A DNA stretch of 13,572 nt, from the UHGV virus genome UHGV-1746862. One strand, 5' to 3'. A model generated the notes under the pieces. That model saw only the letters and a list, made by a program, of their open reading frames with translations, did not search any database and was not told the DNA's origin. Positions within the stretch are counted from its first letter, which is position 1; each line of letters begins with the position of its first letter. Positions 814-13,572 of the stretch are shown here, one piece after another. The stretch is from a virus. The position numbers and the translations under genes are program-made.

Positions 814-900
814 AGTACTTTACAGGGGGCTTAAAAGTTGATATCTTAAGCCCCAGATAAAGAGCTTTACCACTCAATCCTTAAACTAGGAGATTCAAAA
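811..900 (+). promoter_or_regulatory. Type A cassette (variant stem)
   Basis: TTTACA 819-824; TATCTT 842-847; stem GGGGCTTAA 826-834 / TTAAGCCCC 846-854; CTAGGAGATTCAAAA then ATG at 901. Confidence 0.55.
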
Positions 901-1413
901 ATGAAAACTGTAGACGCTACCTTTGAAGTTGTAAAAGAAAAATTCACCATTATTTACGAAGCTGTCAATTGTTATGAAGCAAGCCATAATCTTGATAATT
1001 GGAAGTTTACAGATGACCATCAAGGCGGCGTGACTGTTAAAAATCCTAACTGTCAGCGTAATGAATTTAAATATGCAATCCCTTTACATTACAGCCTTAA
1101 ACAGCTTTCAAGTGACTATGCAAAACAAGGCCGTGAGAATCCATCGAAAGAGGCTTACACGAGCTTACAGAAAGAACTAGAAAGAGATTTAGAGGCTTCA
1201 GAGTATAACCTTGCCGCGAAAGTTGTGGATGCAAACGGTAGCACGGTTTTAGAAAGTTTTTATCTTGGTTATGCTTTCGATTGGTGCTATCGTGACGGCG
1301 ATGATTTAGAGGATAGACTAAAAGAAGAGGTGAACAACGCAGACGCAGAATCTGAAGTATTAGAACGTTTGGAATCGTTGAAAGACTCAGTGATGAATAT
1401 CTTTAAGAACTAA
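901..1413 (+). CDS. Hypothetical acidic protein (170 aa)
   Basis: ORF with cassette RBS; stop TAA 1411-1413 abuts the next cassette; no recognisable motif. Confidence 0.75.
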   Translation: MKTVDATFEVVKEKFTIIYEAVNCYEASHNLDNWKFTDDHQGGVTVKNPNCQRNEFKYAIPLHYSLKQLSSDYAKQGRENPSKEAYTSLQKELERDLEASEYNLAAKVVDANGSTVLESFYLGYAFDWCYRDGDDLEDRLKEEVNNADAESEVLERLESLKDSVMNIFKN

Positions 1414-1505
1414 ATAGATTTCTTTACACGGGGTTATCAGACTGATAAGATAGCCCCAGATAAAGAGCTTTATTCAAATCAACCCTTAAACTAGGAGATT
1501 CTAAA
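1411..1505 (+). promoter_or_regulatory. Type A cassette (divergent stem with compensatory changes)
   Basis: TTTACA 1423-1428; TAAGAT 1446-1451; stem-loop GGGGTTATCAGACTGATAAGATAGCCCC 1430-1456; CTAGGAGATTCTAAA then ATG at 1506. Confidence 0.5.
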
Positions 1506-1802
1506 ATGAAATTATCAAATAAAGTCCGTGAAAATTTAAGCAAGTTACTTAATAAAATTGATTTCATTGAAACATCAAGGAATAGTCATGATGTTATGGA
1601 ATGGTTACACGGAAAAATCAAAGGCCGTCGTGTAGTGATTTGCTTATGGAACAGTTGCAGGGAGTATAAAAAACCTGTATTGCAAGTCAATATTTATGAT
1701 GATACTTTTAAAAGTCCTGTAAAGTCTAAAAGCGATTTATTAGAATCCTATGAGATAACTGTAAATGGCAAAGTATCACGTAAAGAGGAAACACCATGTT
1801 AA
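1506..1802 (+). CDS. Hypothetical protein (98 aa)
   Basis: ORF with cassette RBS; its stop TAA 1800-1802 overlaps the next start (ATGTTAA). Confidence 0.7.
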   Translation: MKLSNKVRENLSKLLNKIDFIETSRNSHDVMEWLHGKIKGRRVVICLWNSCREYKKPVLQVNIYDDTFKSPVKSKSDLLESYEITVNGKVSRKEETPC

Positions 1803-2128
1803 TGACTGGTATCACTGCAATCATTGTCATTTTCGCGCTATATAAGGCATATAAAGCCTATAATCTGGCAAGTAAGGCAATCACACAACAGGTTAATAAT
1901 AACCTTGTAATGAGCTTTCTAGAGCGTTTAAGTGATGAACAATTAAAACGGCTAGAAATGAGCTTTAGATTCAGGGCGAGAACTTATCAAATCAGTGACA
2001 TTTTCAAAGATAATTTTCAATTAGTCGATGATTATAATTCTCTGATAAATGCTTTAAATATTAGTGACTTAAAAGATTATCACGCTGTAATTGTTCAAGA
2101 ATTGAGCAAACGAAAACAAAACTGTTGA
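1796..2128 (+). CDS. Hypothetical small membrane-anchored protein (110 aa), one N-terminal hydrophobic helix
   Basis: Translationally coupled to the upstream gene; GAGGA 7 nt upstream of ATG 1796; residues 3-17 (MTGITAIIVIFALYK) hydrophobic. Confidence 0.65.
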   Translation: MLMTGITAIIVIFALYKAYKAYNLASKAITQQVNNNLVMSFLERLSDEQLKRLEMSFRFRARTYQISDIFKDNFQLVDDYNSLINALNISDLKDYHAVIVQELSKRKQNC

Positions 2129-2217
2129 CACTGATTTTTAGATAGATTAAATTACACATCAACGGGGAGGCAATAACCTCCCTACTAAATAAAGTCCTTA
2201 AACTAGGAGATTCAAAA
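2125..2217 (+). promoter_or_regulatory. Type B cassette: TTGACA-N17-TAAATT promoter, 5'-proximal GGGGAGG/CCTCCC stem-loop, conserved RBS
   Basis: TTGACA 2125-2130 overlaps the upstream stop TGA 2126-2128; TAAATT 2148-2153; stem 2164-2182; CTAGGAGATTCAAAA then ATG at 2218. Confidence 0.6.
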
Positions 2218-2490
2218 ATGTATACTACTAACAACGGTCGTACTTTAAATGTCACTCTACGTCACTATGTTGATGGTGTAATGTGCTTTGATGATTTACA
2301 AGCTGAGCAACACATCTTAGATTGGCAAGTAGCAGGACTCCAAAAAACTGCTACCGGATACGGGAAAAAGATTCCAACTAGCTGGAAAGTACACTATGAA
2401 GGCCGTTTGCGCAGAATTTATCAAGATGTGCAAAGCAATAGCGCATCGAGTTACATTATAGTAAAAGGCAAAAAACTGCATTTAATGTAA
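2218..2490 (+). CDS. Hypothetical protein (90 aa)
   Basis: ORF with cassette RBS; stop TAA 2488-2490 abuts a type A cassette. Confidence 0.7.
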   Translation: MYTTNNGRTLNVTLRHYVDGVMCFDDLQAEQHILDWQVAGLQKTATGYGKKIPTSWKVHYEGRLRRIYQDVQSNSASSYIIVKGKKLHLM

Positions 2491-2576
2491 AGTACTTTAC
2501 AAGGGGCTTATAGTTCGATAAAGTAAGCCCCAGATAAAGAGCTTTACCACTAAATCCTAAATTGGAGAACTTAAAA
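2488..2576 (+). promoter_or_regulatory. Type A cassette, near-identical copy of 431-519
   Basis: TTTACA 2496-2501; stem-loop 2503-2531; same RBS; about 1 mismatch per 100 nt against 431-519, identity extending into the first codons (ATGGCTATTA). Confidence 0.55.
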
Positions 2577-2981
2577 ATGGCTATTAATAACCGTGAATTA
2601 TCAATTTTAAAAGCACGTTTGACCGTTAACCGGATTAATGTTATCACGTCATCAGCACCAGATGAAACACTGCAAAACATTATTGGGAAGATTCAAAGTG
2701 TTATCTTAGACGTTGAAAGCGTAAAAAATTCATTGGCTGACGTTGCAGCAGGTATCACACTAGACGGTGCGCAATATGAAATGTCCGACATGTTAGGCAA
2801 ATCTAAGGTAATGAATAAAGAGTTAGATTTGAAAATGTTCCGATTTGCTGTTAAAGTGTGGCTATCTGTCGAGTATGATGCTAACTTTGCAATCGCTGAC
2901 TTTTTCGCCACTTGGTTGCAGCGTAATTTGACTAATCATGACTTCCGCGATATCTGGGATGCAATTTATGCAGAACTCTAA
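2577..2981 (+). CDS. Hypothetical protein (134 aa)
   Basis: ATG at 2577 with cassette RBS; the track's 2562 start is an in-frame TTG inside the RBS and is rejected. Confidence 0.7.
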   Translation: MAINNRELSILKARLTVNRINVITSSAPDETLQNIIGKIQSVILDVESVKNSLADVAAGITLDGAQYEMSDMLGKSKVMNKELDLKMFRFAVKVWLSVEYDANFAIADFFATWLQRNLTNHDFRDIWDAIYAEL

Positions 2982-2990
2982 AAAATTTTG

Positions 2991-3085
2991 TTGACACTGG
3001 TTTTTAGATAGATTAAATTACACATCAACGGGGAGGGAATGACCTTCCCCACTAAGTAAAGTCCTTAAACTAGGAGATTCAAAAA
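2991..3085 (+). promoter_or_regulatory. Type B cassette
   Basis: TTGACA 2991-2996; TAAATT 3014-3019; stem GGGGAGGG 3030-3037 / CCTTCCCC 3043-3050; CTAGGAGATTCAAAAA then ATG at 3086. Confidence 0.6.
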
Positions 3086-3289
3086 ATGGCTATTATTAAT
3101 GATTTAACCATTGAAACTACACACATCAAAGATATCAAAGTTGGCGATATAGTCCTTTCCCACGGCGTAGAAAAAACTGTCACTGCAAAGGATATCAAAG
3201 AGGATTCTTTCATGGGTAGGACTCTCTTCGGTGATTCTTATTGCTTAGGCTATCTTGCAGTTTTAAAAGTTGTCAAAAATAACAAATAA
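3086..3289 (+). CDS. Hypothetical protein (67 aa)
   Basis: ORF with cassette RBS; starts MAII like the gene at 520. Confidence 0.65.
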   Translation: MAIINDLTIETTHIKDIKVGDIVLSHGVEKTVTAKDIKEDSFMGRTLFGDSYCLGYLAVLKVVKNNK

Positions 3290-3375
3290 AGTACTTTACA
3301 AGGGGCTTAAAAGTTGATAACTTAAGCCCCAGATAAAGAGCTTTACCACTAAATCCTAAACTGGAGATTCTAAAA
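3287..3375 (+). promoter_or_regulatory. Type A cassette (stem variant as in 811-900)
   Basis: TTTACA 3295-3300; stem-loop 3302-3330; CTGGAGATTCTAAAA then ATG at 3376. Confidence 0.55.
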
Positions 3376-3624
3376 ATGATGAACTACTTTAACATTCCCG
3401 ATACCTGTAGATTATTGACACAAGAAGAAAATTTGGGTAAACCTTTCATTTACCACATGCCAGATAACACGGCAAAAACTTATAGTTACAATGTTAACCG
3501 TTTCACCGCATACGCTGCAAAGAACGGCTATAGGTTGGTTACTCAAAAAGTAATGCTGGTTACAACTGCTGGCGAGATTCCTACAGTTGCAGTCAAACTA
3601 GTTTTCTCAAAGAAAGTTAAATAA
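3376..3624 (+). CDS. Hypothetical protein (82 aa)
   Basis: ORF with cassette RBS; stop TAA 3622-3624 abuts the next cassette. Confidence 0.65.
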   Translation: MMNYFNIPDTCRLLTQEENLGKPFIYHMPDNTAKTYSYNVNRFTAYAAKNGYRLVTQKVMLVTTAGEIPTVAVKLVFSKKVK

Positions 3625-3709
3625 AGCACTTTACAAGGGGCTTATAGTTCGATAAAGTAAGCCCCAGATAAAGAGCTTTACCACTAAATCCTAAACTGGA
3701 GATTCAAAA
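3622..3709 (+). promoter_or_regulatory. Type A cassette
   Basis: TTTACA 3630-3635; stem-loop 3637-3665; CTGGAGATTCAAAA then ATG at 3710. Confidence 0.55.
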
Positions 3710-4252
3710 ATGAAATGCTATCACGGAACTACTCAAGAAAATTTCCTCAACCTGATTAATAACGGTGATAAACCATCAGGCGCATGGGATTGTTCGGATA
3801 TGGACGGCAATTTTTACGTGTATCCAGAAAATAAAATCTATGGCGACGATGATGAAGAGATAACATCGGAAGGTATTCAGCAAGCTCTAGGCAATGCCAC
3901 TATCACCGCAGCTTTTCAGATGAAGACTCAAAATATTGTTATCTTAGAACTCGATATTCCAGAGGATGAGCTAAACGATGATTATTCTTGTGATAATATG
4001 TCGAGTGTAGCAAGTTTTACAGAGTACTTTGATGTAAATTGGATTAAAAAGGTCTATACAACAGAGTTTAATGCTATGTATTCACCTTTTTGTCTTCCTT
4101 CATTGGATAACCCAAATTTAAACTATCTTGATGAGTCTCTGGAGCTTCTTGCTAAAAGTGTTCAACAGTCGGACAGTATTCAGGTTTTTTGTGACATCAT
4201 GGATACACTGACAGGAAACATTGCAGAAGAGGATTTAAAGAGCTTTTTCTAA
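3710..4252 (+). CDS. Hypothetical strongly acidic protein (180 aa)
   Basis: ORF with cassette RBS; many Asp/Glu runs (DDDEE, PEDELNDDY); followed by a terminator-like hairpin. Confidence 0.75.
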   Translation: MKCYHGTTQENFLNLINNGDKPSGAWDCSDMDGNFYVYPENKIYGDDDEEITSEGIQQALGNATITAAFQMKTQNIVILELDIPEDELNDDYSCDNMSSVASFTEYFDVNWIKKVYTTEFNAMYSPFCLPSLDNPNLNYLDESLELLAKSVQQSDSIQVFCDIMDTLTGNIAEEDLKSFF

Positions 4253-4284
4253 AAACCTATGCAATCACCTTATAAACACTAATC

Positions 4285-4304
4285 AGCCCCTTGTAGGGGC
4301 TTTT
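4285..4304 (+). terminator. Putative intrinsic terminator (short T-tail)
   Basis: AGCCCC 4285-4290, loop TTGTA, GGGGCT 4296-4301, then TTTT. Confidence 0.45.
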
Positions 4305-4318
4305 AGAGGGCTTAAATC

Positions 4319-4552
4319 ATGCTTACAACCATTTACCTCATCCTTTCCATCTGTAATGGTCATTCATGTGATTTTAAAGGGCTTGAAGAGTTTACAGGAA
4401 GTAAAGAAAATGCTATTCAAGTTTGCCAGATAGCAAGACAAGACTATCCCGCTAGTGATGATATACAATGTTACTTTAAGACAGAAGATGAAGACGGTAT
4501 CTATTTTGACAGCGTAGATGGTCAGTATGAAATTATCATTGAAAAAGACTAG
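4319..4552 (+). CDS. Hypothetical small protein (77 aa) with hydrophobic, Cys-containing N-terminus
   Basis: ATG at 4319 with weak AGAGGG upstream; the only gene of the array without a cassette; N-terminus MLTTIYLILSICNGHSC. Confidence 0.5.
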   Translation: MLTTIYLILSICNGHSCDFKGLEEFTGSKENAIQVCQIARQDYPASDDIQCYFKTEDEDGIYFDSVDGQYEIIIEKD

Positions 4553-4643
4553 ACAAGCCTGATAAAAATCTGTAAATTGTCAATCAACGGGGAGGGAATG
4601 ACCTTCCCCACTAAGTACAATCCTTAAACTAGGAGATTCAAAA
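4550..4643 (+). promoter_or_regulatory. Type B cassette
   Basis: TAGACA 4550-4555 overlaps stop TAG 4550-4552; TAAATT 4573-4578; stem 4589-4609; CTAGGAGATTCAAAA then ATG at 4644. Confidence 0.55.
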
Positions 4644-4985
4644 ATGGCTTATGTAACCGTAATTACCGATAAAGAAAATTCATCTTGGTCAACTCAAGTA
4701 AGTGATAAGATGTCACCTATGCAGTGCCTAAAATACTTTGAACAGTGGAACAAAGGCGAGGACACAAGCCCCTTTCAAGTGATGCAGATTATCCATGTAG
4801 ATAACGAAGGGAATAAAACGGTTTTAAATAGTGAGTACTACGCAAGCCTTTTTGAAACGAGAAGTAAAACAATGAAGCTTTTACGTGAATCCGGTTATGC
4901 CCATATCGCCGCGTTAATCTGGGATGACCTGCTAAAAAACCAACGTATCAGCTATGTAAAACCTGAAAAAATATTCATCAGTTAA
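4644..4985 (+). CDS. Hypothetical protein (113 aa)
   Basis: ORF with cassette RBS. Confidence 0.7.
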   Translation: MAYVTVITDKENSSWSTQVSDKMSPMQCLKYFEQWNKGEDTSPFQVMQIIHVDNEGNKTVLNSEYYASLFETRSKTMKLLRESGYAHIAALIWDDLLKNQRISYVKPEKIFIS

Positions 4986-5018
4986 TCAATAACTTACAAA
5001 AAACTTTTAAAAAAAATG

Positions 5019-5047
5019 TTGACAATACCCCTTGACATTGGTAACTT
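5019..5047 (+). promoter_or_regulatory. Additional promoter-like element with tandem TTGACA hexamers and upstream A-tract
   Basis: A-run 5004-5016; TTGACA 5019-5024 and again 5032-5037; TAACTT 5042-5047 at 17-bp spacing from the first hexamer. Confidence 0.35.
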
Positions 5048-5115
5048 TGTTCGAGGGGGTTTATCTAAAAGGGATTCACTTAAAAGATTCTTTATAGATA
5101 AGCTCAAAAAATTAC

Positions 5116-5208
5116 TTGCAATCAGCTATCAAAACAAGTAAATTACTAATCAACGGGGAGGGAATGACCTTCCCCACTAAGTAAAATCCTTAAACTAGGA
5201 GAGTCAAA
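5116..5208 (+). promoter_or_regulatory. Type B cassette
   Basis: TTGCAA 5116-5121; TAAATT 5139-5144; stem GGGGAGGG 5155-5162 / CCTTCCCC 5168-5175; CTAGGAGAGTCAAA then ATG at 5209. Confidence 0.55.
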
Positions 5209-5739
5209 ATGAACAAGTTTAAAGCTATCAACTTCATTCGTTCAAATGCTGTAATGTCTAAGCCTGTAAAAGATACATATGAATTTCGTTGTAATGGGGT
5301 ACACTTTGCAACCATCACTAAGTCAGAAAACGGGGCTTATTATGTACATCGTCGTAATGTTGCAACCGTTGTAGTCTCTCACTTTATGCAAGCTGTAGCG
5401 GAATTATTACCGTTATTCTTAGAGATTTACTTAGATGAGTGTAAAAACGTTCACAACCACGTTAAAAACCTTTTAAACGGTTATAAAATGGCTTATGAAC
5501 GTTCTATCAAGTCACTAAACAAGTTTTACAATGCACCTGCAAATACTGTTTCAATGGCTTATGATGTAAACGGTGAGTTAGTTAGTCTCTTTAAAGTGGA
5601 AGAAATTAAACTGTATAATCTACGTCCTAGTGGTTACTCTAAGACTCTTGGTGAAGGTTTAACGTTCAATATCAAGAACTTAGAAAAAACTTTAAAAGAT
5701 ATTGAAAAAGATATTGACGAGACACTTAAAAGTCTGTAA
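5209..5739 (+). CDS. Hypothetical protein (176 aa)
   Basis: ORF with cassette RBS; its last codons and stop contain the promoter of the next cassette. Confidence 0.75.
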   Translation: MNKFKAINFIRSNAVMSKPVKDTYEFRCNGVHFATITKSENGAYYVHRRNVATVVVSHFMQAVAELLPLFLEIYLDECKNVHNHVKNLLNGYKMAYERSIKSLNKFYNAPANTVSMAYDVNGELVSLFKVEEIKLYNLRPSGYSKTLGEGLTFNIKNLEKTLKDIEKDIDETLKSL

Positions 5740-5806
5740 ATTGTCAATCAACGGGGAGGCGATAACCTCCCCACTAAATAAAACCCTTAAACTAGGAGAT
5801 TCAAAA
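5714..5806 (+). promoter_or_regulatory. Type B cassette, promoter embedded in the 3' end of the upstream gene
   Basis: TTGACG 5714-5719; TAAATT 5737-5742 overlaps stop TAA 5737-5739; stem GGGGAGG 5753-5759 / CCTCCCC 5766-5772; CTAGGAGATTCAAAA then ATG at 5807. Confidence 0.55.
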
Positions 5807-6065: not shown

Positions 6066-6117
6066 GGGGCTAAATAGCCCCAGATACCTGAACAGCCCCT
6101 TAAAATGGGGCTTTTTT
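6066..6117 (+). terminator. Two consecutive GC stem-loops, the second a canonical intrinsic terminator closing the rightward array
   Basis: GGGGCT-AAAT-AGCCCC 6066-6081; AGCCCC-TTAAAAT-GGGGCT 6094-6112 followed by TTTTT 6113-6117. Confidence 0.6.
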
Positions 6118-6560
6118 ACGTCTATGTAATAGCCTCTATTCAATCCTTTTCCTTTCCTTTCCAGAATCTATCCCACTGATTCAATAGAATCTTATCAGAC
6201 CTTAAAAGCAATAACTCTATAGTCTACTCTATAACCTCTTATCAAATCAACTTAAATAAAAGCCAATAACCCCAGAAAGGGGATGGCCCATTTAAACGCT
6301 CTATAAAGCTCTATAACAGCCTTATCAACCTAACTTAAGGGATTGCATTACCTCACCCTAAAAAGCCCTTTATAAAGCTTCCCAGAGACTTAAAAGAATC
6401 TTATAAGGGTGTAAGCTTTATCATCTCATTAGTATTCTTGTGAATATCTAAACAACCCCTTGATAGTCACTAAAAAGTATGTTATAGGGGCTTTAAAGTT
6501 ACTTTGAAGTAGCTTAAAAGTTACGTAAAAGAGGCTATAAAGTTACGTAAATGCTAGCCC

Positions 6561-6661
6561 CCTTAACATTCTCTTAACAATTTCTTAACAATCCCTACAT
6601 AGTTATGCTTTTAAGGCACTTGTTAGCAACTTGTTAGTCCCTTGTTAAATCTCTGTTAAGA
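6561..6661. repeat. Head-to-head sub-array: three CTTAACA sites, then four TGTTA(G/A) sites in the opposite orientation, each set at exact 11-bp spacing
   Basis: TAACA cores start at 6564, 6575, 6586; TGTTA cores start at 6621, 6632, 6643, 6654. Confidence 0.7.
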
Positions 6662-6863
6662 CCACGTAAAAGCCTTGTAAGAGTCTTTGACATAGCCTTA
6701 AAAGCTCCTGTAAAGCCCTATAAAGAGCTATCTGTACAGTTGGGGGATAGATACTAGGAAGAGACTTAAAAGAGCTTACAAAGAGCTATAGAGAGCTTTT
6801 AAGAGGGCTATTTAGAGAATCACTAAGAGAGAAAGGGAACGATAAGACCAGAGATAGTGACCA

Positions 6864-7140
6864 TGTTAATAGCTTGTTAAAAAGATTAAACACTTGTTAG
6901 AAACTTGTTAATTATCTTAACAAAATAACTCTTTAAAATTAACTTGTTAGCTCTTGTTAATCATCTGTTAAGACTCTGTAAAGACTATTCAGCACTTGTT
7001 AGAAAACTGTTACAGCCTTGTTAGTTCTGTTAAGAAACTGTTAAGACCTTTGAAGAGTTGTTAAGAAGGTGTTAGAACTGTTAAGAGATTGTTAAGGATA
7101 TTTTAAAATTTTGCAAAGTACTTGTAAGGGAGCTGTTAAG
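6864..7140 (+). repeat. Tandem array of about 17 TGTTA(A)G-family sites, mostly phased at 9-11 bp
   Basis: TGTTA cores start at 6864, 6875, 6895, 6906, 6945, 6955, 6966, 6997, 7008, 7019, 7028, 7039, 7059, 7070, 7079, 7090, 7134; one inverted copy (CTTAACA) at 6916-6922. Confidence 0.7.
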
Positions 7141-7429
7141 GGCTACCAAGCAGATATACATCCTAATCAGATATTTTTGAGTTCCTTCAAAGACCCTAAA
7201 AAATGACTTGACAGTCCTATTTTATAAAAATTTTAAGATTCTGAATAATTACCTATACAGCCTTTTAAAAATACAGGTAATAACAGGCTTATAAGATACC
7301 TTGTTAGTACCGTGTTAGACCTTGTGAGATAAGGCCTGTAAAGATATTCCTGTTAAGTTTATTAAAACAGTCTATATAGAGGCTTAGTAATACCTAGTGA
7401 ACACCTATAGAGAGTATCATAGCTGACAT

Positions 7430-7635
7430 AGAGATTAAGAGGTGTATAGGAGCTTCTAAGAAGGTGTAGAGGGATGGTTAAGGTGATTGTATAGGTTGTT
7501 AAGAAGGCTTGTTAGAGGGCTTGTTAGAAGGGTTATACAGAGGGGCTATTAAGACCACTAGATAGTTACTAAGATACTATATAGTACTATATAACTATAT
7601 AGAGAGTAAGATTAAGAAGGTTGTTAAGAAGGATA
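7430..7635 (+). repeat. Cluster of longer motif variants ((C)TTGTTA(A)GAAGG, AAGGTGTAGAGG)
   Basis: TTGTTAAGAAGG at 7496-7507 and 7621-7632; CTTGTTAGAGGG at 7508-7519; CTTGTTAGAAGGG at 7520-7532; related GGTGTATAGG / AAGGTGTAGAGGG at 7440-7473. Confidence 0.55.
7575..7602. repeat. TATA-rich palindromic cluster
   Basis: Perfect 12-bp palindrome TACTATATAGTA at 7575-7586; three CTATATA(G) copies at 7577, 7587 and 7595. Confidence 0.6.
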
Positions 7636-7690
7636 GATATTTTGTTCACATATGATGGTGACCCAGAGGTTGGGACAACCGATAAAATTT

Positions 7691-7723
7691 TATAAAAGTA
7701 AAAAGCCCCCAATTAAGGAGGCT
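7691..7723 (-). terminator. Putative intrinsic terminator closing the leftward gene cluster
   Basis: On the minus strand, AGCCUCC-UUAAUU-GGGGGCU (7 bp stem with one G-U pair) followed by UUUUACUUUUAUA, just past stop TAA 7735-7737. Confidence 0.55.
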
Positions 7724-7734
7724 CTTAAGATATT

Positions 7735-8358
7735 TTAAATCAGTGTTTCCAGAACTGTTTTTAATGATGACTTGGTTGTCTGATAAAAATGAGTAAATCC
7801 ATTATTGTTATCGAATATCTGCATCATAACAGCATCTCCCTTGATTGGGTACACTCGGATATCATAGTGAAAACCATTAAAGACACAAGAGCCATTACAG
7901 AATGCACTAAAGTCATCCACTGAGATATACTCTTCATGCCCTGTGATTTTTATACAAACACCTTTACTCGGTCTCTTAGGGTTGATATCTTCCATCACAG
8001 ACATACTCTGCCCACCAAGAGATACCATAGTGACCACTTTACGGTTCTTCTGTTTAAAGTACATCTTAACTTTCTGTAAAGTGTCTTCATAGAACGGGTA
8101 AGACCTTTCTACAAAGATTCCTTCAAGTGGCTCTTTACCATTTTCAACTTCTCTGTTATGCCGTACTGCAAAGATAATTTGTTCGAACCAGTCAAGATTT
8201 TCTTCGGAGAGTGCTTCTCGAACATCACTCCAGTCAAGTACTAGGTAGTTACCTTCAACTTCTTTTAAGTTATCTTTTTCCATAGATATCACACCATTAT
8301 CGTAAAACTTGATATTCTGGTACTGCGAATTTATTACTATTGTTCTTGATGAGGTCAT
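7735..8358 (-). CDS. Hypothetical protein (207 aa; possibly starts at the internal ATG 8283, giving 182 aa)
   Basis: Long ORF; the first 62 nt overlap the upstream gene in another frame; no clear SD before ATG 8358. Confidence 0.65.
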   Translation of the reverse strand: MTSSRTIVINSQYQNIKFYDNGVISMEKDNLKEVEGNYLVLDWSDVREALSEENLDWFEQIIFAVRHNREVENGKEPLEGIFVERSYPFYEDTLQKVKMYFKQKNRKVVTMVSLGGQSMSVMEDINPKRPSKGVCIKITGHEEYISVDDFSAFCNGSCVFNGFHYDIRVYPIKGDAVMMQIFDNNNGFTHFYQTTKSSLKTVLETLI

Positions 8359-8761
8359 CCTCTGAAACTAAAAATGTAATACCACATAAGTGTCTGTAAC
8401 GACTATCATACTCGAATATCTTAAACAGATATTTACCATCATGATAAACCTGTTGCACTTCACCTTCTGCAACAATCTCGCCTGTAATAAAATTTTTTAG
8501 TTTATACACATTACCAACCTTAGGTACTGTTTTCATCTCAGGCTCTTTTAGTGCTACACCTATTTTTACATCACCGAGTAAATGAGAACTCTCAAAAGCT
8601 ACGTGTTTCATATAGGCTTCTGAGCATTCCCAAATAAAACAATGTACAAGAACCTTAGCAGCATGTCTTGAGCAGTTCAACTTATCACAAATTTCTGTGT
8701 ACATCTCATCTTTAGTAGAATTGTCAAGCATTGCTCTTTGCACTACTTCTTTAATTTTCAT
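8297..8761 (-). CDS. Hypothetical protein (154 aa)
   Basis: ORF in the leftward cluster, overlapping the upstream gene by 11 nt. Confidence 0.7.
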   Translation of the reverse strand: MKIKEVVQRAMLDNSTKDEMYTEICDKLNCSRHAAKVLVHCFIWECSEAYMKHVAFESSHLLGDVKIGVALKEPEMKTVPKVGNVYKLKNFITGEIVAEGEVQQVYHDGKYLFKIFEYDSRYRHLCGITFLVSEDDLIKNNSNKFAVPEYQVLR

Positions 8762-9173
8762 AAGCTCTCCGAATAACCCTATTAAGCATCTCTAAAGTCA
8801 GCTTTCCAGATTCTAAATGTGGCATGATGAGTTTTAAAGCTTTTTCAACATCATTCACAACATCTATTATACCTTCTTCATAGGCTTCTACGAGGATATC
8901 TTTTACACCGATATAGCCTTCATTGATAATGATTTGCATATCAAAATCTTTTGATTGCTTGTTTAACTTACCTCTCCAATACCCATCAGCATTAAAAGAT
9001 ATCACTTCACACTCTTTAAAATCCATATCATCTGCATTGAATGGAGTAATTATTGTGCATTGGATTGGGTACTCTACACCAGTGGTGTCAACATCAAAAA
9101 CCTTCACAGAAGTGAGTGGTTTCTTTGTTTTAGAGCAGTAAACTGTCAATCTTTTACCAATAAGCTCTTTCAT
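8751..9173 (-). CDS. Hypothetical protein (140 aa)
   Basis: ORF with GAAGG-type RBS upstream of ATG 9173. Confidence 0.7.
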   Translation of the reverse strand: MKELIGKRLTVYCSKTKKPLTSVKVFDVDTTGVEYPIQCTIITPFNADDMDFKECEVISFNADGYWRGKLNKQSKDFDMQIIINEGYIGVKDILVEAYEEGIIDVVNDVEKALKLIMPHLESGKLTLEMLNRVIRRAYEN

Positions 9174-9226
9174 TTCGCTACCTTCTAAGTTTCTACAAAG
9201 GGGCTATCAAGTAACCCCTCAAGCTA

Positions 9227-9451
9227 CTACTCAGACTTTTCAGTCTTCTTATCGGATTTCTTACTAGTCTTCTTCTCAGCTTTCTGTTCAGGCTCCTTCT
9301 CAGAAGTTGCCTTGATAACCATATCAAGAAGCTCTGATAAGTCACTCTTCAGCAAAGTAACAGGCTGCTCGTTGTAGAAGTTTTTGTCAAGATAAACTTT
9401 GAACTCTTCTATAGAAGGAAATCCAAAAATTGGTACAGGTGTCTTAATCAT
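9227..9451 (-). CDS. Hypothetical small protein (74 aa) with Lys/Glu-rich C-terminal tail
   Basis: ORF with GGAGAG 8 nt upstream of ATG 9451; C-terminus EKEPEQKAEKKTSKKSDKKTEKSE. Confidence 0.6.
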   Translation of the reverse strand: MIKTPVPIFGFPSIEEFKVYLDKNFYNEQPVTLLKSDLSELLDMVIKATSEKEPEQKAEKKTSKKSDKKTEKSE

Positions 9452-9527
9452 TACTTAGTCTCTCCATAGGCATCTTTTAAGATTGCCTTGTTAATCATTT
9501 CAGCGATTGCAAAACGAACACATACAG

Positions 9528-10061
9528 CTATAATTGTAGGTTGCATTCTCTACTTACCTCTTCAAGTTTAACCTCAGAATCCTTAAGTCGTTTCTTATGA
9601 ACTCTGAACCTCATTAGTGAGATGATGATACCAGCTAAAGGAACAGCATACAAGTACCAAACATCATGTGCCTTTGCAGTAATCTGTGTAATGGTCAAGT
9701 CTTGAGCTATGTAGCTGATTGCTGATACGGCTAGTAATGTTGCTAAGAAGAAAACCAGTATCATAACAATATTCAGACAACCTCTGGCATGGTATTCATG
9801 CTTAATGCACTTATTCTTCTCTTCAACAACCCTGTTGTAGTCATTTGTAAAGTCTCTGTAGAAAGCTTTTAAGTATTCTTGAGTGTAGCCTTCAAAGCAA
9901 CCTGTGCCGTACCAATAATCACCACCAAAATGTGCTATGATACCTGTATCCCCATTTGGTTTGGTTACTCTTAGTGAAGTATGATGACCAGTCTTCTGAT
10001 AATCTATCTTGTATCTTTCTTCGTAAATCATTTCCCAACCCCTCTCAATCGTTTGTTCCAC
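9528..10061 (-). CDS. Hypothetical membrane protein (177 aa), soluble N-terminal part then two predicted TM helices and a charged C-terminus
   Basis: Hydrophobic segments IVMILVFFLATLLAVSAISYI and VWYLYAVPLAGIIISLM; alternative coupled start at 10031 (ATGA overlap with the upstream stop). Confidence 0.7.
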   Translation of the reverse strand: MEQTIERGWEMIYEERYKIDYQKTGHHTSLRVTKPNGDTGIIAHFGGDYWYGTGCFEGYTQEYLKAFYRDFTNDYNRVVEEKNKCIKHEYHARGCLNIVMILVFFLATLLAVSAISYIAQDLTITQITAKAHDVWYLYAVPLAGIIISLMRFRVHKKRLKDSEVKLEEVSRECNLQL

Positions 10062-10246
10062 TCAAGGTCAACAAGTCTTTGCAGGACTTTCCCTCTAGGT
10101 GTTACACCTTTTAAATCTGCATCGTAGCAACGGTAAAAGTCACCTTCAGCGTGTTTACCGTAGCATTTTCTGATATTCTGGCTCCTACGATACTGCTCTA
10201 ACAGGGAGAGTCTGTAGTAATCTTCAACTGTAGTTAACTTTTTCAT
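10028..10246 (-). CDS. Hypothetical small basic protein (72 aa)
   Basis: ORF with ATGA overlap to the upstream gene (10243-10246). Confidence 0.55.
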   Translation of the reverse strand: MKKLTTVEDYYRLSLLEQYRRSQNIRKCYGKHAEGDFYRCYDADLKGVTPRGKVLQRLVDLEWNKRLRGVGK

Positions 10247-10788
10247 TCTTTCACCATAGCGTTTCTGAACTGGCGTTGTGTTTCTCTTGTAATTTCGTTT
10301 GGAGTAAACCCTGCTTTTAGCATATCTCTGAAAAGAACTTCTAAATGGTTCCTCTCAATGATGTAAATAGCATTCTGAATAGCTGTTTTGCGCTCCTTCA
10401 GGTCACTACTAATCTCTTCGCACTTACTGGTAAGTTCTGTATCAACTTTCTTATAGACTGGCATAACATGTGCGTAGCAACCTTTATTAGTCTCCATGAA
10501 AAATTTAAAAGACTCTTCAGAGTCCTTTAGAGCAATCCCTATAAAGTTTTTGTAAGCACCTGTGAAAGATAAGGAATCAATCTCAGCAGTTGAGTATACA
10601 GTTCCTGCACACAGTCTTGCAGAAGTACTGAATGTGTGGTTTGGTGTTGTGTCAAAGTCTAAGTTCTTCAGTGGTCGGAAATAAACTGTACCATTGTGTG
10701 AGATGTGTGTTACAACAGCCTCAACACTCTTTGAAGGATTCTGTTTAACATACAAAATAATTTTATCGTGTTCTTTCACTTTAGCCAT
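10243..10788 (-). CDS. Hypothetical protein (181 aa)
   Basis: ORF with GGAGAG RBS upstream of ATG 10788. Confidence 0.7.
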   Translation of the reverse strand: MAKVKEHDKIILYVKQNPSKSVEAVVTHISHNGTVYFRPLKNLDFDTTPNHTFSTSARLCAGTVYSTAEIDSLSFTGAYKNFIGIALKDSEESFKFFMETNKGCYAHVMPVYKKVDTELTSKCEEISSDLKERKTAIQNAIYIIERNHLEVLFRDMLKAGFTPNEITRETQRQFRNAMVKE

Positions 10789-10802
10789 ATCTACTCTCCA
10801 GA

Positions 10803-10835
10803 AACTAAAAAGGGAACTACCTCTCGATAGCTCCC
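10803..10835 (-). terminator. Putative internal intrinsic terminator in the leftward cluster
   Basis: On the minus strand, GGGAGCU-loop-AGUUCCC (10812-10835) followed by UUUUUAG (10805-10811), which runs directly into the RBS of the gene starting at 10788. Confidence 0.45.
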
Positions 10836-10860
10836 ATCATAATCAATATTGTATACTCGG

Positions 10861-11442
10861 TCAAGAGTATTTTTTAGGCAGCAATGCACTGCGCTTGTTA
10901 CTCTCTTCACTCAATAGTGCAATGAAATCATCACTTTTACCTTTCCACGGGCTGAATGAAGGGATATGTTCGCGGATAGCCTCAATCACTGTTTTAAGTG
11001 CTGTGTTCTTCATCCACCAATCAGAATCTGCTGATGCTACCACGTAGTATCCACCGTCATCAGTTAAAATTGGCTCTGAAATACATGGTGAAATCAAAGT
11101 GGTGATGATTGAACCGTTGTTCATGTAGTATGTGCGCTTCATAACCTTTTCAAGAAGCTTGTGAAGGTCACCAAACAATGTTACAAGTTCTTTATGGTCA
11201 ATATCTTTTTCGAGACTAGCTCGATACTTCAAAAGTGCAGCATCAACTTCTCTGTCATTAAACTTGAAGTACTGGACTTCATCAACAAGGCAGACACTAA
11301 TGTTATTAACATTCATAGTCAGCTTGCAAACTTTTGCAGGAGAGTTGATATTTGGTTGAAAAAGTGCAATACACCCTTCAATATTTCCAAAATGTTGTAC
11401 CAGTGTTACTTGTGGAGTGATATTCTGTTGCTCTTCGGACAT
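10861..11442 (-). CDS. Hypothetical protein (193 aa)
   Basis: ORF; start overlaps the upstream stop (TAATG, shared nt 11442). Confidence 0.7.
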   Translation of the reverse strand: MSEEQQNITPQVTLVQHFGNIEGCIALFQPNINSPAKVCKLTMNVNNISVCLVDEVQYFKFNDREVDAALLKYRASLEKDIDHKELVTLFGDLHKLLEKVMKRTYYMNNGSIITTLISPCISEPILTDDGGYYVVASADSDWWMKNTALKTVIEAIREHIPSFSPWKGKSDDFIALLSEESNKRSALLPKKYS

Positions 11443-11786
11443 TACAGTTTCCTCATTAAATACTTTTTAAGTTGTGTGTTAGGTTTCTCAAAAACTTCTA
11501 TAGAAGATATCTTAACAGATTCACCACGCATACCAGTATGTTTGAATATGTAATACTCTAACATCCCTATGTACTTTGCTGGTAAGTCATGCTTGACATA
11601 CACCGTCACAGAATCTTCAAATTCAACGACCTTCGTACCATCTTTGTAGTTAAACTCTTTAGGATGGTTGTAGTTGTCTATGTCATACATTAAAAAGAGT
11701 CTTTTACGTTGTAAATCAAGCTTATTTGTTAAAGACTCTTTGATATCTGAGAAGTTTTTGTACACTGTGACATGGAGCTTACTCAT
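11442..11786 (-). CDS. Hypothetical protein (114 aa)
   Basis: ORF; 8-nt overlap with the upstream gene. Confidence 0.65.
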   Translation of the reverse strand: MSKLHVTVYKNFSDIKESLTNKLDLQRKRLFLMYDIDNYNHPKEFNYKDGTKVVEFEDSVTVYVKHDLPAKYIGMLEYYIFKHTGMRGESVKISSIEVFEKPNTQLKKYLMRKL

Positions 11787-12072
11787 CGTTAAACTCTCTG
11801 ACGAAGAAATAGTTGACTTTGTTATTACCTACCATAAGGTCAAAGCAGGTATTTTCAAAAGGTTTGTTGCAGGCATCATATGAAGTGTATGTATCAGCTA
11901 CTTGCTTAGTAGTGAGCTTTTTACTTGATGGATTTAAGAGGCCACCATACAGTTTCTTGATAGCCTCTTCTACAACAGACCAGATGATTTCGTCAGTAAT
12001 CTCTTCGTACAGGTCAAGTTCACGCTCTAGTGAGAAGTCACAAATAGGGAAAATAACCTGCACTTTACTCAT
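11779..12072 (-). CDS. Hypothetical protein (97 aa)
   Basis: ORF; TAATG overlap with the upstream gene at 12072. Confidence 0.65.
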   Translation of the reverse strand: MSKVQVIFPICDFSLERELDLYEEITDEIIWSVVEEAIKKLYGGLLNPSSKKLTTKQVADTYTSYDACNKPFENTCFDLMVGNNKVNYFFVREFNDE

Positions 12073-12470
12073 TAACGAATCACCTGTGAGACTTGAATTG
12101 CTTCAGTTACTGACAAGTCACCTACTTTCTCTTCTTTGATAAAAGTGAAGGTGAGTTCAACAGGTTCTTGCTCTTCTTGCTCAACTGGAACACCATTAAG
12201 CTCATCAAAGATTGATTGGGTTGTCCAGTCTTCACCACCATCTGGGTAGTGGATTGCGTAAAGAGGGAACTCTATATCAAACCAACCAAATACAGGACAA
12301 CCATCTTCATCATCTCGTACTCGATGAAGTGTGCTTCCAGACCCTGTAAACTGAAGGAATAAATCTCCGTTGCACTTGTATATTACTGCATCGGCAAAAC
12401 CTATATCTTCTCGACCATCATGACCAAACGTGTCAACTTTTACTTGGATATCTCTAACATCTTTATTCAT
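12072..12470 (-). CDS. Hypothetical strongly acidic protein (132 aa)
   Basis: ORF; 8-nt overlap with the upstream gene; Asp/Glu-rich (RDDEDG, EQEEQEP). Confidence 0.7.
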   Translation of the reverse strand: MNKDVRDIQVKVDTFGHDGREDIGFADAVIYKCNGDLFLQFTGSGSTLHRVRDDEDGCPVFGWFDIEFPLYAIHYPDGGEDWTTQSIFDELNGVPVEQEEQEPVELTFTFIKEEKVGDLSVTEAIQVSQVIR

Positions 12471-12861
12471 AAAAACCTCTCTCTGCTTGTTCGATTTTTG
12501 CTCTTAAAGTTTCGCAATGATGTAGATGGTAGTTAGCTTCTTGTTCATGTGTTGCTAACTGCCTTTCCAGAACAGTTTTATAGTAACCTGCAAGTTGCTC
12601 TTTTGTCAATGGGTGCTCTGAAATAATATCAAGTCCACTTTCGCCAAGAGGGTTGAATTGTCCATACTCATTGACATTGTAAGTCTCAAACTTGAACAGG
12701 CCATTGTTCACAGACTCAATAGGTGACAACTCAACAAGCTCTACAGTAAACCGTGTATATACCTTGTCACCTCTTGAAACCACATTGTTCCCGACAATGC
12801 GTACAAGCGAGCCATTACGAGTGTACTTAAAAGTTCCAAAGTCACTAGCCCAAAGTTTCAT
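12463..12861 (-). CDS. Hypothetical protein (132 aa)
   Basis: ORF with AGGAG 6 nt upstream of ATG 12861, directly downstream of the lysozyme terminator. Confidence 0.7.
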   Translation of the reverse strand: MKLWASDFGTFKYTRNGSLVRIVGNNVVSRGDKVYTRFTVELVELSPIESVNNGLFKFETYNVNEYGQFNPLGESGLDIISEHPLTKEQLAGYYKTVLERQLATHEQEANYHLHHCETLRAKIEQAERGFYE

Positions 12862-12876
12862 AGTTTTCTCCTTAGA

Positions 12877-12902
12877 AAATAAAAAAGGCTCCCGAAGGAG
12901 CC
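12877..12902 (-). terminator. Intrinsic terminator downstream of the lysozyme gene
   Basis: On the minus strand, GGCUCC-UUCG-GGAGCC (12887-12902) followed by a U-run (12877-12886). Confidence 0.65.
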
Positions 12903-12912
12903 TATGAAGATA

Positions 12913-13377
12913 TTACTTTGGGTATAAACTGTCAAGATAAATGTCAGCTTCCATTCTACGTCTGTTTTTCAGTCCGTTTGAAGTGACTTTCTTACCTTTG
13001 ACTGTAACCTTGTTCCACCACTGCATAGCTTCTGCACAACCTACCTTATCACCATCGTTGTGGCGCTTGATAAATGTGGAGTCCTGCATAGCTGTGATAC
13101 CAATGTTGTATGTTTCACTTACAAGTGCGTCAAACTCATTCTGAGAAGTTGGAACCTTGACGGCTTTGTTCACTGCTGCAACGAACTTTTCAACATCTGC
13201 GAGAAGATACTGTTCAGCTTGTTCAGCGGTAATCTTCATACCCATCTTAACAGGTTTACCAGCAATACGGATTGTCCCATACCCAATTGTGGGGATTCCA
13301 GCAGAATCTTCGTAAGCCTCAAGCTTAAGACCTTCAAAGAACTTAATAGCTTCTAATCCTTTTCTTGAGAGTTGCAT
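12913..13377 (-). CDS. Phage lysozyme / endolysin, glycoside hydrolase family 24 (T4 lysozyme / P22 gp19 type)
   Basis: Translation has the GH24 N-terminal catalytic signature EGLKLEAYEDSAGIPTIGYGT (Glu, Asp, Thr spaced as in T4 lysozyme E11/D20/T26) and downstream blocks (MKITAEQAEQYL, QNEFDALVSETYNIG, WWNK...GLKNRR) matching P22 gp19-like lysozymes from memory; AGGAGG RBS; no N-terminal hydrophobic segment. Confidence 0.9.
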   Translation of the reverse strand: MQLSRKGLEAIKFFEGLKLEAYEDSAGIPTIGYGTIRIAGKPVKMGMKITAEQAEQYLLADVEKFVAAVNKAVKVPTSQNEFDALVSETYNIGITAMQDSTFIKRHNDGDKVGCAEAMQWWNKVTVKGKKVTSNGLKNRRRMEADIYLDSLYPK

Positions 13378-13572
13378 TATGCCCCTCCTACTGGGTTAAC
13401 TGTAACTGTTGCCGCATTAGATGTTACAGAGCCACCTGCACCTGTTACAACGCAAGTGTATGAACCTGCATCTGCTGGCAGAGCACCAGACTTGCTATAG
13501 GTAGCATTTGTCGCTGAAGGAATGTCAGAGCCATCTTTCTTCCATTGGTAACCAGTTGCACCAGTTGCAGTA
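13377..13572 (-). CDS. 3' end of a gene truncated by the window edge; C-terminal Ig-like domain, probably a virion structural or decoration protein
   Basis: Open frame running out of the window; the translation ends ...YQWKKDGSDIPSATNATYSKSGALPADAGSYTCVVTGAGGSVTSNAATVTVNPVGGA, with the Y-x-C core and beta-strand pattern typical of Ig-like domains; stop TAA 13377-13379 overlaps the lysozyme ATG (TAATG). Confidence 0.6.
   Translation of the reverse strand, partial: TATGATGYQWKKDGSDIPSATNATYSKSGALPADAGSYTCVVTGAGGSVTSNAATVTVNPVGGA

Follow-up and report, generated by a model that had tools for sequence, protein, structure and literature searches.

Do short genes packed end to end on one strand of a phage genome encode the parts of a single machine? 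The question is raised by positions 7735-12861 of the UHGV virus genome UHGV-1746862, where a string of small leftward (minus-strand) genes lies in a 13,572-nt stretch of DNA, that whole stretch being the window of this analysis. A first-pass annotation, made from the letters alone, described them as twelve continuously packed genes whose products would be co-translated and act together as one uncharacterised module. We reach a different answer: on balance, the region probably forms the distal portion of 'ORF40-24', a leftward transcription block of Felix-O1-like phages, and is a multi-unit accessory set rather than one machine. We favour this reading because (i), the gene content varies between related phages, (ii), conserved promoter/terminator composites divide the string, (iii), the counterparts of two genes, g8 and g9, show a dependence on the host strain E. 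coli S17-1, (iv), the corresponding string of a distant relative contains the anti-Gabija gene Gad1 and, (v), the product of the last gene, g12, is modelled with a Whirly-like fold.

Identity, gene count and packing of the string

With window bases 7500-13572 as the query, more than 250 phage records match, 178 of them over at least 80% of its length; the nearest are the Felixounavirus phages LF110P2, XTG1 and wV8, at 93-96% nucleotide identity. The leftward genes correspond one-to-one to Felix O1 ORF34-ORF24, wV8 gp39-gp28 and Bas63 gp122-gp112: the genes are the same, in the same order, and all are labelled hypothetical. Like wV8, the window has the optional genes g6 and g10, whereas Felix O1 lacks g10 and Bas63 lacks both. 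Lengths are given in amino acids (aa), with the isoelectric point (pI) and the PHROG family where these help to place the product.

g1, 12463..12861, minus strand: 132 aa, phrog_4266 (unknown function); wV8 gp39, Felix O1 ORF34, Bas63 0122
g2, 12072..12470, minus strand: 132 aa, acidic, pI 4.2, phrog_4348; wV8 gp38, Felix O1 ORF33, Bas63 0121
g3, 11779..12072, minus strand: 97 aa, acidic, phrog_4385; wV8 gp37, Felix O1 ORF32, Bas63 0120
g4, 11442..11786, minus strand: 114 aa, basic, phrog_4040; wV8 gp36, Felix O1 ORF31, Bas63 0119
g5, 10861..11442, minus strand: 193 aa, the most widely retained gene of the first unit; wV8 gp35, Felix O1 ORF30, Bas63 0118
g6, 10243..10788, minus strand: 181 aa, optional gene in the first slot after the P2/T2 composite; wV8 gp34, Felix O1 ORF29, absent from Bas63
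g7, 10028..10246, minus strand: 72 aa, basic, pI 9.8, phrog_4459; wV8 gp33, Felix O1 ORF28, Bas63 0117
g8, 9528..10031, minus strand: 167 aa, N-terminal soluble domain of ~80 aa, two hydrophobic segments and a basic C-terminal tail; wV8 gp32, Felix O1 ORF27, Bas63 0116
g8b, 9451..9546, minus strand: 31-aa hydrophobic micro-ORF, MQPTIIAVCVRFAIAEMINKAILKDAYGETK; not annotated in wV8 or Felix O1, Bas63 0115 (gp115)
g9, 9227..9451, minus strand: 74 aa, lysine-rich tail, phrog_4457; wV8 gp31, Felix O1 ORF26, Bas63 0114
g10, 8751..9173, minus strand: 140 aa, optional gene in the first slot after the hairpin at 9198..9220; wV8 gp30, absent from Felix O1 and Bas63
g11, 8297..8761, minus strand: 154 aa, N-terminal 55 aa nearly invariant, C-terminal domain variable; wV8 gp29, Felix O1 ORF25, Bas63 0113
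g12, 7735..8283, minus strand: 182 aa, with an alternative upstream ATG at 8358 (207-aa form); wV8 gp28, Felix O1 ORF24, Bas63 0112

Thirteen genes, and not twelve, make up the string: what looked like a 76-nt gap separating g8 from g9 is occupied by the open reading frame (ORF) g8b, which shares 19 nt with g8 and a single base (TAATG) with g9. The annotations of Bas63, SUSP2, Mijalis and Sf13 include it; its product is invariant (100% identity) within the genus and matches those of other genera at 68-76%, and its ratio of non-synonymous to synonymous substitution (dN/dS) is 0.18-0.19. When compared with Bas63, SUSP2 and Mijalis, all 13 genes have dN/dS values of 0.08-0.30, a sign of purifying selection, and are therefore real coding genes. 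An all-against-all BLAST of the 13 proteins found no paralogy. Two starts needed attention: that of g8 is the ATG at 10031, not the GTG at 10061, as fixed by PHROG alignment, and that of g12 is most likely the ATG at 8283 rather than the longest-ORF start at 8358, because 26 homologues all have this methionine, the structure model shows the 40 residues before it as disordered and the shared domain starts at the first residues of 289 remote homologues.

Direct reading of the junctions bore out both the coordinates of the string and the overlaps first described (ATGA, TAATG and 8-11 nt). On the minus strand g1 and g2 overlap by 8 nt (ATGAATAA), as do g3 and g4 (ATGAGTAA); g2/g3 and g4/g5 share one base (TAATG), g6/g7 and g7/g8 share four (ATGA), and g10/g11 share 11. 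Altogether 10 of the 12 junctions between the 13 genes overlap, by 1-19 nt, the stop overlapping or abutting the next start on the same strand. Contrary to what had been supposed, the packing is nevertheless not continuous: g5 and g6 lie 72 nt apart and enclose a terminator and a promoter, g9 and g10 lie 53 nt apart around a hairpin, and a 13-nt spacer separates g11 from g12. The leftward packing exceeds the background of the window, where the rightward genes at 900-5740 are spaced by 66-104 nt in 9 of 11 junctions, yet it is normal for phage operons.

Predicted promoter/terminator composites of the string

The string is not one uninterrupted transcription unit, since terminators lie at 10812-10835 and, before g1, at 12886-12903, with a further hairpin at 9198-9220. 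The regulatory elements are:

P1, 12907..12935, minus strand: sigma-70-type promoter-like sequence, TTGACA, 17 nt, TATCTT
T1, 12886..12903, minus strand: intrinsic terminator, AGGCUCC-UUCG-GGAGCCU then U6, between the endolysin gene and g1
P2, 10836..10864, minus strand: sigma-70-type promoter-like sequence, TTGACC, 17 nt, TATGAT
T2, 10812..10835, minus strand: intrinsic terminator, 10-bp stem then U5, between g5 and g6
Hairpin, 9198..9220, minus strand: conserved GGGG-loop-CCCC with a poor U-tract and no promoter, between g9 and g10
T4, 7701..7726, minus strand: intrinsic terminator closing the string after g12, -15.2 kcal/mol

P1 and P2 each fit 10 of the 12 positions of the sigma-70 consensus, with a spacing within 16-18 nt, and both are kept in relatives. 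The -35 hexamer of P1 falls within the 3' end of the endolysin gene; Suspvirus and Mooglevirus have TTGACG, 17 nt and TAGATT here, so that hexamer placement and spacing are kept despite the sequence differences. T1, a 7-bp GC hairpin (-12.9 kcal/mol, z -3.96), begins 3 nt past the P1 -10 hexamer and is identical in six genomes of three genera. The -10 hexamer of P2 directly adjoins the stem of T2 (-16.3 kcal/mol, z -5.1), and TTGAC and TATGAT are invariant in the three genera while the spacer diverges. The Felix O1 genome paper (Whichard et al. 2010, PMC3185647) lists T2 as its terminator t29. The hairpin between g9 and g10 (-12.6 kcal/mol) is kept in the three genera with different loops and is annotated as a terminator in wV8; it is possibly a partial terminator or an RNA processing site. 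An equivalent of T4 is also present in the other genera. In a pattern search of five loci, each of 12.5-26 kb, a promoter joined to a terminator was found at P1/T1 and P2/T2 only. Across Felixounavirus, Suspvirus and Mooglevirus the spacers diverge while the hexamers, their spacing and the hairpins of the composites persist. An Rfam search of the window gave no match. The two composites and the hairpin divide the string into g1-g5, g6-g9 and g10-g12.

We propose that two or more units of the sigma-70 type, read by the host RNA polymerase, cover the string: one would run from P1/T1 through g1-g5 to T2, another from P2 through g6-g9, the hairpin and g10-g12 to T4. Transcripts arriving from upstream would halt at the terminator that adjoins each promoter, whereas those born at the promoter would start about 7 nt past the -10 hexamer, inside the 5' arm of the hairpin, and would escape termination. 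Within each unit the overlapping stops and starts would couple translation. The part of the earlier proposal that survives is thus co-expression within sub-blocks; that the products also share a function does not follow from coupling. The Felix O1 paper (PMC3185647) left open whether read-through or secondary promoters carry transcription past its many terminators. It likewise proposed host-type promoters, from a search that covered intergenic DNA, and P1 and P2 are not in its list. Judged from sequence, the abutting arrangement of promoter and terminator is a possible answer to that question.

Ten of the genes (ORF24-26 and 28-34) are transcribed in Felix O1, mostly with a peak in mid-infection: by reverse-transcription PCR (RT-PCR) the maximum is at 25 min for ORF24, 25, 26, 28, 29, 32, 33 and 34 and for the endolysin gene, at 5 min for ORF31 (g4) and at 60 min for ORF30 (g5), ORF27 not being listed (PMC3185647).

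Several points weigh against a multi-unit accessory set. Genes of a single predicted operon reach their RT-PCR maximum at different times (5 min for g4, 60 min for g5 and 25 min for the others), and a literature search for transcript 5' ends of any Felixounavirus found none; the division into units is accordingly tentative. The accessory role is argued from context, partial dispensability and analogy, the strong conservation of g3, g4 and g5 would fit an important core function equally well, and none of the products matches a known anti-defence or host-takeover family.

Gene content, products and rival explanations

The order endolysin, g1-g5, terminator, g6-g9, hairpin, g10-g12, terminator is common to Felixounavirus, Suspvirus and Mooglevirus. 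The gene content varies across relatives, contrary to what a single module would lead one to expect: of ~253 records, 122 have g6 and 110 have g10, and g11 is missing from Si3 and IME338. Absent from Bas63, IME338, SP4 and Si3, g6 is longer in other genera and only 29-43% identical there; g10 exists as two alleles (~96% and ~57% identity) and is absent from Felix O1, Bas63, SP4, Si3 and IME338. Each of these two optional genes takes the first position after a regulatory element. g8, by comparison, was found in all 253 Ounavirinae records returned by the search. A distant metagenomic relative, L010, keeps g1-g5, g8 and g9 at 30-59% identity, and a second, the Ounavirinae-like L008, keeps g2, g3, g5 and g8 only (4 of 13). 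The L008 string continues as a long run of other small genes that includes Gad1 (anti-Gabija) at 9993-10994 (Pfam E 2.7e-65), in the same leftward string and 2.4 kb beyond its g5 and g8 homologues. Synonymous divergence (dS) from Bas63 (L003) is ~1.0-1.3 for g1, g5 and g11 and 0.05-0.3 for g3, g4, g7-g9 and g12 (g9 0.05, g4 0.13, g7 0.20), a ~25-fold spread between genes; this mosaic argues for recombination inside the block, with gene-by-gene allele exchange within the genus. The string would then comprise a fixed core (g1-g5, g7-g8-g8b-g9 and g12) and three exchangeable slots (g6, g10 and g11).

The first-pass annotation recognised no catalytic or structural motif in any product, and profile searches agree with it. 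Every one of the 13 products matches only PHROG families of unknown function; none scored above the Pfam cut-off, searches of NCBIfam and PADLOC gave no match, and eight family profiles searched against PDB sequences found no relative at E <0.009. For g5, g11 and g12 the family of homologues does not extend beyond Ounavirinae-like contigs and has no Pfam domain. No product was assigned to a well-known housekeeping function of phages, and a comparison with Pfam anti-defence families (such as Gad1, Ocr and ArdA) and with the PADLOC models was equally negative. A structural role in the virion was considered and rejected, none of ORF24-34 being among the virion proteins named in the abstract of the Felix O1 paper (PMC3185647). 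In the portion of the Bas63 cryo-electron microscopy (cryo-EM) study used here, no fewer than 23 gene products make up the virion, and the sole gene placed outside the structural module is the immunoglobulin (Ig)-like decoration gene upstream of the string. The 13 small proteins, none of them reported in virions, may act as accessory factors on the host or on nucleic acids.

The rival that survives best would restrict the module to the g1-g5 operon, whose products would be the subunits of one complex, or steps of one activity, made in fixed ratios. Felixounavirus, Suspvirus, Mooglevirus and the distant L010, the last at 40-59% identity, share both the gene sizes and the 8-1-8-1 nt pattern of overlaps, and all five genes are present in the twelve related loci compared, except L008. 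However, L008 has g2, g3 and g5 without g1 and g4, and g1, g2 and g5 have exchanged alleles independently of g3 and g4 (dS 0.75-1.3 vs 0.13-0.24). Possible as it is, we find such a restricted module rather unlikely.

The individual products of this operon give few hints. From the appearance of its sequence, g1 has a beta-rich N-terminal part and a helical C-terminal part; it has no Pfam or PDB match, a dN/dS of 0.10-0.13, and is absent from L008. Among the core genes g2 varies most (65-98% identity within the genus); its invariant motifs are DGCPxF and YPDG..DW. The label 'D-alanyl-D-alanine carboxypeptidase' has spread to g2 homologues through many Felixounavirus records (e.g. nataliec_38 and Si3 gp008). 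As a candidate function it was rejected, g2 and seven aligned homologues having no Pfam, NCBIfam or PDB match to such enzymes (M15/VanY, S11, S13). g3 is kept even in L008, at 40% identity (dN/dS 0.09-0.30), and g4, without a PDB match, is 97-100% identical within Felixounavirus. In the g5 family 18 of 19 members have sub-threshold matches to Pfam DUF5092, a family likewise uncharacterised and one that the literature searched does not mention; a structure model of g5 (pLDDT 69.5) found no significant fold match.

At the other end of the string, g12 offers the clearest structural lead. Its AF2 model is confident at residues 108-206 of the 207-aa form (pLDDT >90), with a beta4-alpha-beta4-alpha arrangement (E108-112, E118-123, E133-137, E142-146, H147-154, E158-161, E165-171, E176-183, E189-195, H196-206). 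This C-terminal domain is a tandem beta-beta-beta-beta-alpha repeat that superposes on solved members of the Whirly/PC4-like family. Its fold relatives are T. brucei MRP1/MRP2, plant Why2 and p24, Streptomyces SsgB and the jumbo-phage RNA-binding protein ChmC, the last being a phage precedent for the fold. The identity to Whirly, PC4-like and PUR proteins is 7-14%, that is, no sequence similarity, and g12 differs from them by an extra N-terminal domain. Apart from one chance match, g12 matched no Pfam family at E up to 1, Whirly and PurA included, and no PDB sequence, and a search of BFVD returned uncharacterised phage proteins only. SsgB, which is not known to bind nucleic acid, shows that such a fold is not always that of a nucleic-acid binder. 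With this and the lack of sequence-level support in mind, we call the g12 model Whirly-like in fold only; g12 may be a single-strand nucleic-acid binder. The N-terminal domain of ~75 aa heads 289 representative proteins with many different C-termini; it matches no Pfam family and has the consensus RE.RYLV.K..D....L ... GK.PL.CVV.E.DWP.YE.TW..IE.

Directly downstream of g12, window positions 6113-7700 form a 1.6-kb stretch between convergent terminators in which no ORF exceeds 41 aa. YTGTTAR occurs there 27 times, often phased by 11 nt (17 per kb vs 0.8 per kb elsewhere in the window, ~20-fold), and wV8, Bas63, SUSP2, Mijalis and Sf13 show the same enrichment (10-17 per kb). The stretch is possibly an iteron array, as an origin or a protein-binding array. 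It is tempting to speculate that g12, perhaps with g10 and g11, serves this non-coding array as an origin-binding or origin-melting protein or as a packaging or replication accessory. The modelled fold is typical of single-strand DNA or RNA binders, and g12 ends 35-100 nt from the repeat-rich region, whose enrichment is conserved in three genera. But adjacency is the only link between the two, Whirly-like folds also occur in proteins such as SsgB that are not known to bind nucleic acid, and g10 and g11 are optional; we judge an iteron-serving role improbable. Across 22 homologues of g11, residues C30, S31, R32, H33, C46 and E48 are fixed and the C-terminal half is swapped between lineages. A helix-turn-helix suspected in its N-terminal domain was dropped, Pfam giving no support in any of the 22 members.

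The middle of the string raises the question of the membrane. g8 has hydrophobic segments at 81-112 and 124-142 (by hydropathy) and is predicted from its sequence to be an inner-membrane protein, both ends of which would be cytoplasmic because of the positive-inside rule; g8, g8b and g9 may act together there. g7, upstream, has an ATGA overlap at both ends and a dN/dS of 0.09. The Bas63 knock-out screen describes the region as interspersed small hypothetical genes of varying essentiality, in which gp114 (g9) and gp116 (g8) matter mainly on E. coli S17-1 and are thus conditionally needed. The authors of the screen speculated on a role in lysis, and g8, with its two membrane segments and charged C-terminal tail, shares its strand with the endolysin gene, from which it lies 2.9 kb downstream, so g8 with g8b and g9 could be a holin, an antiholin or a lysis-timing device working with the endolysin. 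Against this, no holin or spanin family of Pfam or PHROGs is matched, holins do not typically have an N-terminal soluble domain of ~80 aa, two terminators intervene between the endolysin gene and g8, spanins are annotated elsewhere in the Bas63 genome, the same authors put the holins in a different, non-essential segment, and the Moogle genome paper calls the lysis genes of Felix-O1-like phages scattered. A lysis device seems slightly less probable still than a role at the iterons. g8 as a holin in its own right was rejected on the same family searches and soluble domain, and on its distance of six genes and two terminators from the endolysin.

A single complex or pathway made of all twelve products first described is, finally, very improbable: although the gene order from the endolysin to g12 is kept in three genera, 8 of the 11 junctions between the twelve genes overlap and most transcripts peak at the same time, the string has two conserved internal terminator/promoter breaks and a hairpin, g6, g10 and g11 are often absent, phages naturally without one of them (Bas63, Si3) exist as viable isolates in culture collections, L008 retains no more than 4 of the 13 genes, synonymous divergence is mosaic, and the Bas63 phenotypes differ between genes.

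The string was correctly placed by the first-pass annotation between capsid-decoration and lysis genes on one side and a repeat region on the other. The endolysin gene at 12913-13377 matches Pfam Phage_lysozyme (E 4e-41), and in the Bas63 screen its counterpart behaves as a trigger of the Ec67 retron. Immediately upstream of the endolysin gene, the Ig-domain gene (13377-13572 and beyond the window) bears the GenBank label 'tail protein' in most records; the Bas63 cryo-EM study identifies its product as Hex-Dec, which decorates the capsid hexamers and whose gene lies away from the structural module. On the rightward strand, between 770 and 5210, a repeated cassette of 66-104 nt precedes most small genes; most cassettes combine a GGGG...CCCC hairpin with a near-identical ribosome-binding stretch (AAACTAGGAGATTCAAAAATG), two types alternate, and they are the 'DR' repeats annotated in wV8.

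Comparison with known phages and accessory blocks

The block is already known as Felix O1 ORF24-34, catalogued, timed and knocked out in a published screen, and it is no new kind of system. For the counterparts in Felix O1, wV8 and Bas63, transcription timing, the virion proteome and knock-out fitness have been published. What we add is new but modest: a conserved 31-aa gene, kept also where it is unannotated (wV8 and Felix O1), the abutting promoter/terminator cassettes, start-codon corrections, a map of core and optional genes, and the Whirly-like fold of g12. A bolder reading would make g12 a new two-domain Whirly-type single-strand binder, acting on the YTGTTAR array or on phage mRNAs, the abutting promoters an insulation device and g1-g5 a host-directed complex. 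We regard this combination as doubtful, somewhat more so than a g1-g5 module as such; if it were true, a device that stops incoming transcripts and restarts inside the hairpin would answer the terminator question of the Felix O1 paper.

The typing, biocontrol and therapy of Salmonella and E. coli make wide use of Felix-O1-like phages, about one tenth of whose genes sit in such unannotated blocks. A core with three slots, host-type promoters and one fold that may bind nucleic acid should make targeted deletions and host-range tests easier to design.

Blocks of small accessory early or middle genes are known from virulent phages such as T4, with its many small non-essential ORFs, and T7, with its class I and II genes, and such blocks turned out to hold host-takeover and anti-defence functions. 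The string described here differs from the T4 and T7 sets in that no product matches a characterised member and the Felix O1 transcripts peak in mid-infection, not immediately early. It nevertheless resembles them in being composed of genes that are small, tightly packed, non-structural, often dispensable in the laboratory and variable between relatives.

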